Positions 8,823 to 9,642 of a DNA stretch of 20,927 nt are shown here, one piece after another. The notes under the pieces were generated by a model. The model ran no database searches, was not told where the DNA came from, and saw nothing but the letters and a program-made list of their open reading frames with translations. This DNA comes from a virus. A program made the position numbers and the translations under genes. Location of the stretch: UHGV virus genome UHGV-0268707. One strand, given 5' to 3'. Numbering within the stretch: the stretch's first letter is position 1; every line of letters starts with the position of its first letter.

Positions 8823-8851
8823 GGCCTGGTAAAATCCAGGCCATTTTTTTT
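8823..8851. terminator. Bidirectional rho-independent terminator between convergent genes
   Basis: GGCCTGG-taaaat-CCAGGCC followed by ATTTTTTTT on the plus strand; on the minus strand the same hairpin is followed by TTTATCATTTT. Confidence 0.6.
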
Positions 8852-9356
8852 ACAGTAAGCCTATTAAGGCACTTGCGCCAGCCCCAACAATGCTGGCAAC
8901 GGTACTGTTTTCCAGTAACTGCTTTAATACTGATTTGGCTTGTACATCCCCCGATTTAGAGACTTTTTCAACCAGTTCAGTGATGCTGATGTTTACCAGC
9001 ATATGGTTATGCTCACCTATCTGCACTTGATTACCACTAATTGAACCAATGTTAAATGTATTACTTTTAGGTGGCGTCATATGTTCATTTCCCGTGATAT
9101 TTTCAATATAGAGCGTCAACATATTTGGATGGTTGGTTCCCTGTCTGAGGGTTCCATTGGGAAGCAACTTCATATCTATAATTTTTAGATTTATCTCGTT
9201 TTTACCGACACACTGGATAATGTGTTGACCAATAGTTACTTCCGGTTCATTTGTATATGGAATTAATACCTTGTTTTCTTTTGCGTTTCTTTTACCTTTA
9301 AATGATTCGCCATTAATTATGAAAGTATCAGGGTATACCATTGCGCTTAAATTCAT
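8850..9356 (-). CDS. Hypothetical tail-anchored membrane protein (AT-rich cargo gene, candidate accessory function)
   Basis: 168-aa ORF on the opposite strand to all surrounding element genes. AAGGA RBS 6 nt upstream of the ATG (9356). Region is visibly AT-rich compared with neighbours. The C-terminus STVASIVGAGASALIGLL is a single hydrophobic segment ending the protein. No family recognised. Confidence 0.65.
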   Translation of the reverse strand: MNLSAMVYPDTFIINGESFKGKRNAKENKVLIPYTNEPEVTIGQHIIQCVGKNEINLKIIDMKLLPNGTLRQGTNHPNMLTLYIENITGNEHMTPPKSNTFNIGSISGNQVQIGEHNHMLVNISITELVEKVSKSGDVQAKSVLKQLLENSTVASIVGAGASALIGLL

Positions 9357-9642
9357 GATGCGTCCTTTGTTGTAGTCAGAGGTAGCAATAATAGGCCATG
9401 GTTTACTTCTTTTGTAAATTATTTGTTCGTGTTTTTTCGTGGTTGTTCGGCCTTACTGACAGGTGTTTACATACTGATTTTTATGTATATGTTGGCGTGT
9501 GGCACTCAGACGTGAGCCGCCACAATGCCGCCTGACCCCCTGCGCGATGCCGGGTTGATCTGCGAGATGCCGAGAGTGTCGGGCGGCGCTCCCTCCGTGT
9601 TGGTTTCACGTCCTGAATCTTAACCAATACGAGAAAACCTTC

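Follow-up and report, generated by a model that had tools for sequence, protein, structure and literature searches.

The window analysed here, the whole of a 20,927-nucleotide stretch of viral DNA (UHGV virus genome UHGV-0268707), represents an Escherichia coli capsid-forming phage-inducible chromosomal island (cf-PICI). One of its genes encodes a protein of 168 amino acid residues, here called ORF168, and is a self-contained mobile cargo in a defence hotspot between the replication and the packaging modules of this satellite. The protein belongs to a modular family in which a conserved C-terminal part, including a motif resembling the RHIM of RIPK1 and RIPK3, is combined with exchangeable N-terminal domains. 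We infer that ORF168 is somewhat more probably than otherwise an anti-phage protein acting as a single-gene effector. Our tentative preference as to how it acts is sensing by the N-terminal domain, polymerisation through the RHIM-like motif and attack on the membrane, leading to abortive infection or exclusion.

The reading frame is a real gene. PHROG 5789, a family of 'unknown function', matches it over the full length (E 3.5e-86), and each of the 98 full-length homologues found is named hypothetical. In the annotated, near-identical copy of the satellite in E. coli 042 it is the sole minus-strand gene between the primase gene and the capsid gene, in agreement with an earlier reading based on the sequence alone (the sequence-only reading), which had described it as the only sizeable minus-strand gene in the replication-to-capsid part. 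The same reading had judged the gene by eye to be AT-rich (35-40% GC compared with about 50% nearby) and to be insulated by a bidirectional terminator, and both impressions hold when computed. The GC content is 37.3% (36.1% at third codon positions), compared with 49.8% for the satellite and 48.1% for both the upstream flank and the capsid gene. The hairpin at 8823-8842 is terminator-like on both strands, with folding energies on the plus and minus strands of -15.2 and -14.4 kcal/mol (z -3.6 and -3.3), respectively. It terminates the upstream plus-strand operon, and the stop codon of ORF168 abuts its T-run.

The boundaries of the mobile unit were obtained by blastn against satellites with an empty slot. 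In strains A41 and OkiPb01703 (L025 and L027) the flanks are 93-96% identical to those of the window, and just 24 and 4 bp, respectively, replace positions 8850-9409. The hairpin belongs to the conserved flank, the OkiPb01703 element aligning through position 8849. The slot is also empty in the Sakai prophage-like element Sp7 and in UCPROB-002, and with four such elements lacking it ORF168 is not a core cf-PICI gene. Because the empty-slot satellites keep both the terminator hairpin and positions 9410-9642, the mobile unit is ORF168 together with the 53 bp upstream of it, and the GC content of this unit is 0.379 compared with 0.498 for the element. The sequence-only reading had assigned all of 9357-9642 to the gene as its own upstream region. 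This is correct for 9357-9409, which is specific to the cassette, while 9410-9642 is a shared capsid-operon leader and not ORF168's own, since it is conserved in satellites without ORF168. That the gene is a cargo cassette can be stated with high confidence.

Transcription of ORF168, which runs counter to that of the late operon, probably starts from a promoter of its own. A promoter scanner found no minus-strand promoter. By eye, a Shine-Dalgarno sequence, AAAGGA, is seen on the minus strand at 9362-9367, and a candidate promoter, to be taken as a lead only, consists of TTTACA (9418-9413), a 19-nt spacer and TATTAT (9393-9388). The -35 element of this candidate would fall in the conserved flank, and the -10 element in the 5' region of the cassette. 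The leader also holds a plus-strand promoter-like site at 9466-9493, and an Rfam search of the leader gave no family. Within it, at 9495-9600, is a GC-rich stretch, conserved both in satellites that carry the cassette and in those that lack it, which may help to regulate the late operon.

Other satellites carry other genes in exactly this slot, between a small conserved gene with the terminator and the capsid gene. Strain GN05476 has two genes matching the PADLOC candidates PDC-M18A/B (E 1.9e-71 and 7.8e-23), and strain GN02050 has an Aga_Nuclease-like gene (PADLOC, E 7.1e-84); the proteins are unrelated to ORF168. The comparison of the locus across related satellites, which the sequence-only reading had suggested, thus shows a variable slot and a gene that is not present in all related elements, and the proposal of accessory cargo has stood up, with empty sites between highly similar flanks and defence candidates as the other occupants. 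Immune genes are expected in this region of the satellites (bioRxiv 10.1101/2025.02.11.637232). The accessory region downstream of pri in PICIs has been shown to hold Tai immune genes, and the position of the ORF168 slot agrees with this (PMC11364771).

Of 5,426 complete E. coli genomes, 76 contain DNA resembling ORF168 and 531 a related capsid gene. The whole gene is spanned at 93% identity or more in 51 of the 76, and the other 25 match just its 3' part at 71-79%; four of these 3'-only loci were translated and gave full-length homologues at 60-65% identity. The region is mosaic, because ORF168 genes that are 98-100% identical accompany capsid genes that are only about 70% identical. Of the 50 IMG/VR contigs encoding a homologue (46-100% identity), 46 have it oriented divergently from a cf-PICI capsid gene, and in 37 of these 46 the gap between the two is 268-302 bp. 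As the same exact position is kept across deeply diverged satellites, ORF168 appears as a long-standing and frequent passenger rather than a one-off acquisition.

When it comes to the protein itself, its structure was predicted with AlphaFold2 on 34 homologues (mean predicted local distance difference test score, pLDDT, 78.5). The sequence-only reading had proposed a soluble N-terminal domain of about 140 residues; instead, we are confident, though a little less so than for the cassette, of an architecture with a β-barrel, a poorly conserved linker, the RHIM-like motif, helices and a hydrophobic tail. In the motif region three short strands are predicted with low confidence (102-107, 110-114 and 120-124), and the helices span residues 125-135, 138-149 and 151-167. 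By mean pairwise identity the least conserved part is the linker (0.30), followed by the barrel (0.54), the helices (0.59), the motif (0.63) and the tail (0.75), so that conservation in the family is highest in the tail and next highest in the motif. Invariant among the 34 homologues are I103, G108, Q112, G114 and N117 in the motif, and D137, A140, K141, L144, N150, T152, G158, A159 and L164 in the helices and the tail. The barrel is a putative ligand-sensing domain; relatives have unrelated domains in its place. Homology of the barrel to head-closure or stopper proteins was rejected at the level of sequence profiles, and a Foldseek search against the viral structures of BFVD gave nothing at E<=0.001.

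A hydrophobic C-terminal segment is indeed present, as the sequence-only reading had claimed. Its further description as tail-anchored is doubtful, because the tail has only 17 residues (T152-L168), a best 19-residue Kyte-Doolittle mean of 1.48 (the usual cut-off is 1.6; the family median is 1.45) and a Hessa-scale sum of +4.3 kcal/mol. Small residues recur in it with a regular spacing, A154-x3-G158-x3-S162-x3-G166, and in this the tail seems closer to helices that are latent or line a pore than to an anchor of the classical kind. These properties also bear on the possibility that ORF168 mediates non-lethal superinfection exclusion. The C-terminal helix would then anchor the protein constitutively in the inner membrane and block DNA entry or another early step, like HK97 gp15 or Sie, and the motif would serve for oligomerisation only. 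The presence of the hydrophobic helix, the moron-type locations of the family in prophages and satellites, and an orientation that would permit expression in the resting element are all compatible with this. However, the hydrophobicity of the tail is marginal, a C-terminal anchor would leave nearly the whole protein in the cytoplasm, away from the injection machinery, and the swappable cytoplasmic N-terminal domains and anchorless partners sharing the motif, described below, fit better with a sensor-effector logic. We regard such exclusion as unlikely.

The family was not recognised by the sequence-only reading, and it is unannotated in all the searches made here. Pfam, NCBIfam, PADLOC and PDB sequence searches with ORF168 gave no family besides one weak match to RHIM, and in PADLOC-DB v2 no family matched at E<=10. 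No paper describing the family was found in the literature, nor any mention of the RefSeq accessions of its members. The single Pfam match (residues 109-119, 14.8 bits, E 0.021) had escaped the sequence-only reading, and it could be dismissed if it stood alone, but RHIM recurs across the relatives of ORF168. It is the only recurrent Pfam family among them, found at E<=0.1 in 19 of 95 members. The curated gathering threshold of the Pfam RHIM model (PF12721) is 20 bits, and seven relatives score above it: P0238 (25.2 bits, E 1.1e-5, the top score), P0193 (24.9), P0214 (23.3), P0240 (22.8), P0205 (21.6), P0222 (21.0) and P0242 (20.1).

For the reciprocal comparison, a 28-column profile built only from 42 bacterial motif segments was run against all 177,635 distinct PDB sequences. 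Seven matches were obtained at E<=10, and all are RHIM fibril chains of RIPK1 or RIPK3; the best has E 5e-4, with the aligned stretch 'FNSSGIQIGNHNYMDV'. The core of RHIM is a tetrad, (I/V)-Q-(I/V)-G, followed by a conserved asparagine, and ORF168 has both (V111-Q112-I113-G114 and N117), its core reading V-Q-I-G-E-H-N. A central G-phi-Q-phi-G signature is common to RHIM and to the fungal PP and bacterial BASS3 motifs, and the RHIM-like BASS3 motifs form amyloids (10.1101/2020.01.06.895854). The exact signature is found in some relatives of ORF168, as GIQIG in P0238, P0214 and P0222.

An exhaustive profile search of 1.84 billion representative proteins (E<=1e-3) returned 248 proteins. Many of them, similar in size to ORF168, align with the profile solely at positions of about 90-168, which cover the motif, the helices and the tail, and have unrelated N-terminal domains. 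These include winged-helix-like domains (weak, sub-threshold matches to DUF2513 and HTH_45), zinc-ribbon-like and helical domains, other small barrels and a tandem two-domain form. Exchangeable front ends on a conserved output module are known from sensor-effector immune proteins, and the ORF168 family may follow the same pattern.

At several loci the motif is also shared between adjacent genes. In E. coli 4621, in Enterobacter soli and in six IMG/VR contigs (the loci L014, from E. coli 4621, L005, L044 and L060-L064) a co-oriented partner gene containing the motif is found directly upstream of the ORF168 homologue in the same slot; examples are 4515-5279 in L014 (WP_000159505.1, paired with WP_000365446.1) and 7132-7917 in L005. 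The partner proteins have 244-266 residues, with a different, helical N-terminal domain of about 170 residues, for which no informative structural match was obtained, the motif FNIxTVNSxYxQ[FL]GTNNNI and a C-terminal end that is not hydrophobic. The tails of partner-type proteins are graded. In P0267 the tail is intact, in P0264 and P0265 it has charged residues within it, and the E. coli proteins have none; P0153 and P0197 combine the partner-type N-terminal domain with a full tail. A short amyloid motif common to neighbouring genes is what characterises amyloid signalling, for example in the NLR/HET-S pairs of fungi, the NLR/Bell pairs of bacteria and Bab/Agp of E. coli (10.1101/2020.01.06.895854, 10.1101/2024.11.07.622273). 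Satellites of the Pluralibacter type (L045, L050 at 6345-6974 and L067 at 6257-6970) have a different, co-oriented gene just upstream of the homologue. It encodes a protein of about 200 residues with an N-terminal transmembrane helix and no RHIM-like motif, and may represent a third configuration of the slot.

Outside the cf-PICIs, a full-length Pseudomonas homologue occupies the cargo end of a P2-like prophage, where HEPN-like and subtilase-like genes are its neighbours, the latter matching a PADLOC model. A Xanthomonas homologue lies directly downstream of a PDC-S31 gene, and Shewanella homologues occur among small unannotated genes. A lambdoid E. coli phage has a 27%-identical homologue between Rz and HNH/terS, which is a classical moron position. 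The family is also present in Sulfurimonas, Psychrobacter and environmental metagenomes, and a few homologues have ordinary-looking chromosomal neighbourhoods. For three further members the contigs, of just 2.5-3.6 kb, offered no informative surroundings. Two Klebsiella 'plasmids' in PLSDB, CP018459.1 (16,971 bp) and NZ_CP069874.1 (15,995 bp), contain a homologue and have the size of cf-PICIs; judging by these features they may be excised circular satellites. The 106-kb 'Klebsiella phage' record PQ569648.1 (L083, 97998-105483) contains a segment in which a cf-PICI gene order is seen beside a homologue.

Two other explanations have to be considered. The first is that ORF168 is cargo with no anti-phage role, such as a selfish toxin-like gene or the gene of a membrane-associated or stress-related protein, the RHIM-like stretch being a non-amyloid β-hairpin used for oligomerisation. 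The relatives in ordinary chromosomal neighbourhoods are in line with this, as are the sub-threshold RHIM score of ORF168 and the short, low-confidence strands predicted for its motif. Against it stand a slot shared with defence candidates, a motif profile that is specific for RIPK1/3 across the whole PDB, the common motif of the gene pairs and the strong association of the family with satellites and prophages, and we give this explanation a low probability. The second is a host-directed RHIM mimic interfering with mammalian RIPK1/RIPK3 signalling, like viral RHIM proteins. It would agree with the resemblance to the RIPK RHIMs and with the PerC-family virulence-type regulator encoded next door. 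It is set aside as extremely improbable because of the environmental distribution of the family, which includes Shewanella, Sulfurimonas, Psychrobacter, Xanthomonas and environmental metagenomes; moreover, no secretion signal was noticed, though no search was aimed at one, and the hydrophobic C-terminal module suits a role inside the bacterium.

Among known systems, the closest functional analogue of ORF168, as judged by setting published descriptions side by side, would be Bab/Agp, an abortive-infection system of E. coli with the amyloid motif BASS11 (bioRxiv 10.1101/2024.11.07.622273). Both are carried by E. coli mobile elements (Bab/Agp by prophages, in defence hotspots), both couple an amyloid-type motif of about 20 residues to a small protein whose single hydrophobic helix contains Gly and is proposed to attack the membrane, and in Bab/Agp as in the ORF168 family the motif is common to adjacent genes. 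The residues I87-G88-S89-V90, D99 and N100 of Bab (OWC60847.1) can be placed in register with the family consensus I-G-S-V-x-G-x-x-V-Q-I-G-[DE]-N, a lead only that relies on the residues named in the preprint. The hydrophobic helix of Bab is N-terminal, however, within a four-helix 'Babybell' domain, and its motif is at the extreme C-terminus, whereas in ORF168 the order is reversed, with N-terminal domain, internal motif, helices and C-terminal hydrophobic helix. The sensor Agp is a separate TPR-GreAB-PIN protein of 1094 residues, while ORF168 stands alone in the window.

With the RHIM of RIPK1/RIPK3 (PF12721), ORF168 shares the core phi-Q-phi-G followed by x-x-N. The RIPK, PP and BASS3 systems with Bell, HeLo or NLR domains resemble the ORF168 family in their adjacent motif-sharing genes and in the theme of cell-death effectors, but none of the kinase, NLR, Bell and HeLo domains is present in ORF168. 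Its family, carried on mobile elements, is gammaproteobacterial, whereas BASS motifs have been reported mainly from filamentous Actinobacteria and Cyanobacteria (10.1101/2020.01.06.895854). The architecture of ORF168 differs from that of every described amyloid-controlled effector, in which the pore helix is N-terminal and the motif C-terminal. Tai systems, too, are single small genes with products of unknown fold, often opposing the neighbouring operon, and were missed by PADLOC and DefenseFinder at their discovery. In PICIs they lie downstream of pri, within the accessory region, and in phages upstream of the packaging genes; prophages and P4-like satellites also have them (PMC11364771). Unlike ORF168, Tai has no RHIM-like motif and no hydrophobic end, and there is no detectable homology between the two. 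An identity of ORF168 with Tai was rejected, the hhalign probability against orf63 of phi80 (TaiEcA) being 0.09 and phi80 not being among the tblastn matches.

In the preferred reading, the swappable N-terminal domain, here a small β-barrel, would recognise a phage-derived ligand. Once this domain is engaged, the RHIM-like cross-β motif (residues 99-125, core VQIG) would drive homotypic polymerisation, and at the paired loci it would also co-assemble with the adjacent tail-less paralogue. The C-terminal Gly/Ala-rich helix, which follows a helical hairpin, would be latent in the resting protein, and the polymer would cluster these tail helices and thereby cause their insertion into the inner membrane and its damage. 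The outcome would be abortive infection or exclusion of incoming phages, to the benefit of both host and satellite. Taken as a complete chain from sensing through polymerisation to the membrane, this mechanism is possible but rather doubtful.

A number of observations weigh against it. ORF168 itself has no match in PADLOC, NCBIfam or PDB, and its RHIM score is below the threshold (14.8 compared with 20 bits). It does not contain the G-phi-Q-phi-G signature, reading G108-N-Q-V-Q-I-G114, with the first glycine three residues upstream. The motif region is modelled with low confidence (pLDDT 47-58), and the motif is internal, unlike the terminal motifs of known amyloid-signalling proteins; the layout of the NLR/Bell and Bab/Agp types, with a C-terminal motif after an N-terminal Bell or HeLo helical domain, is not that of ORF168. 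No other reading frame in the window bears the motif, so that ORF168 is a solo form. The shortness and weak hydrophobicity of the tail preclude a confident transmembrane assignment, and in some distant homologues, for instance one from a phage, there is a lysine inside it. As for the hotspot, the PDC models in PADLOC are themselves mere candidates. Finally, in 46 of 50 viral contigs, across deep divergence, the barrel-type subfamily lies next to the capsid gene at a near-constant distance, and a role specific to the satellite could equally account for this. ORF168 might then be a satellite-helper factor, whose barrel, resembling phage neck and head-closure proteins, would bind portal or connector assemblies of the helper or the satellite, and whose RHIM-like module would aggregate or tether them, biasing tails to satellite capsids or timing this step. 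We consider such a role improbable.

Coordinates of ORF168, its domains and the surrounding signals in the window
Feature	Position	Strand	Remarks
ORF168 coding sequence	8850..9356	minus	ATG-to-TAA, 168 aa plus stop codon
Cargo cassette, ORF168 with 53 bp 5' region, 560 bp	8850..9409	minus	from blastn against empty-slot satellites
Cassette-specific 5' region	9357..9409	minus	boundary from blastn against empty-slot elements
Hairpin terminator GGCCTGG-N6-CCAGGCC, T-runs on both sides	8823..8842	both	terminator-like on either strand
Capsid-operon leader, intergenic	9410..9642	.	conserved with or without the cassette
N-terminal β-barrel, aa 1-89	9090..9356	minus	AlphaFold2, pLDDT about 90
RHIM-like β motif, aa 99-125 (NTFNIGSISGNQVQIGEHNHMLVNISI)	8982..9062	minus	core V111-Q112-I113-G114 at 9015-9026
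Two predicted helices, aa 125-150	8907..8984	minus	invariant D137, A140, K141
C-terminal hydrophobic Gly/Ala/Ser-rich helix, aa 152-168 (TVASIVGAGASALIGLL)	8853..8903	minus	putative membrane-inserting

The satellite as a whole starts with an integrase gene, followed by genes for helix-turn-helix regulators, BRO-N, Icd-like and DUF4222 proteins, a DUF927 primase (5466-7586), SSB, PerC (8226-8519), the small conserved gene and the major capsid protein (9643-10788), and then by those for protease, portal, connector, HNH, TerS and TerL. Annotated near-identical elements are found in E. coli 042 and in strain tcmA_3. In the window, as in these two, the insertion site is the large-terminase gene of a prophage. 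Positions 61-834 encode the ATPase domain and the start of the nuclease domain of this TerL and the remainder lies at 16169-16894; beyond it come the portal, protease and capsid genes of the prophage, an arrangement also seen in E. coli 042 and tcmA_3. A resident HK97-like prophage thus has one of its packaging genes disrupted by the satellite. A search for att-type direct repeats on either side of the satellite gave none at the settings used.

The portal-connector region is reported to determine which tails a cf-PICI can use. In the window (11310-12909) the portal gene is followed directly by that of a gp6-like connector (Phage_connect_1), with no head-closure gene between them, while a head-closure gene of about 112 codons lies between portal and connector in ET670, UCPROB-002, GN05476, GN02050, Sakai Sp7 and Kluyvera. 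Variation is also seen in the gene immediately before the ORF168 slot (8226-8519): it is of the PerC family in the window and E. coli 042, of the ProQ/FinO family in tcmA_3 and OkiPb01703, and absent from A41. A second AT-rich patch, with a GC content of 0.36-0.40, follows TerL at 15601-16200 and corresponds to a second variable region behind the packaging operon. Two 17-nt direct repeats (15715-15731 and 15737-15753) are found in it, as is a small reading frame (15796-16047) without a Pfam match. Pfam also gave nothing for a reading frame of 369 codons (3388-4497) that lies downstream of the BRO-N gene in a stretch of negative GC skew. Its counterpart in E. coli 042 is annotated as a truncated pseudogene, and it, too, may be variable or cargo. 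Between the primase and SSB genes, at 7683-7724, lie two tandem 21-bp repeats (TAACCCGCAAAA...), perhaps iterons or part of an origin.

Since the cassette has only 560 bp, the proposed anti-phage function is cheap to test. Should it be true, ORF168 would belong to a family of RHIM-like immune effectors that is widespread in the satellites, prophages and genomic islands of enterobacteria and had so far escaped annotation. It would be the second anti-phage system with an amyloid motif in E. coli, with an architecture different from that of the first, and the first with sensor, amyloid switch and membrane effector in a single protein of 168 residues. RHIM-type amyloid death switches would then occur in Gammaproteobacteria and phage satellites, in a module order that is new compared with effectors of the Bell, HeLo and MLKL types. 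A function would also be given to the variable region before the packaging operon of cf-PICIs, which so far has just been predicted to hold immunity genes. The swappable N-terminal domains would offer a natural collection of candidate phage sensors that share one output module. In its boldest and somewhat unlikely form, ORF168 and its about 250 relatives would be a single-polypeptide bacterial counterpart of RHIM-driven necroptosis, with an exchangeable sensor of phage proteins, an amyloid-like polymer and a glycine-zipper membrane lesion, and with two-gene versions in which sensor and effector are split.

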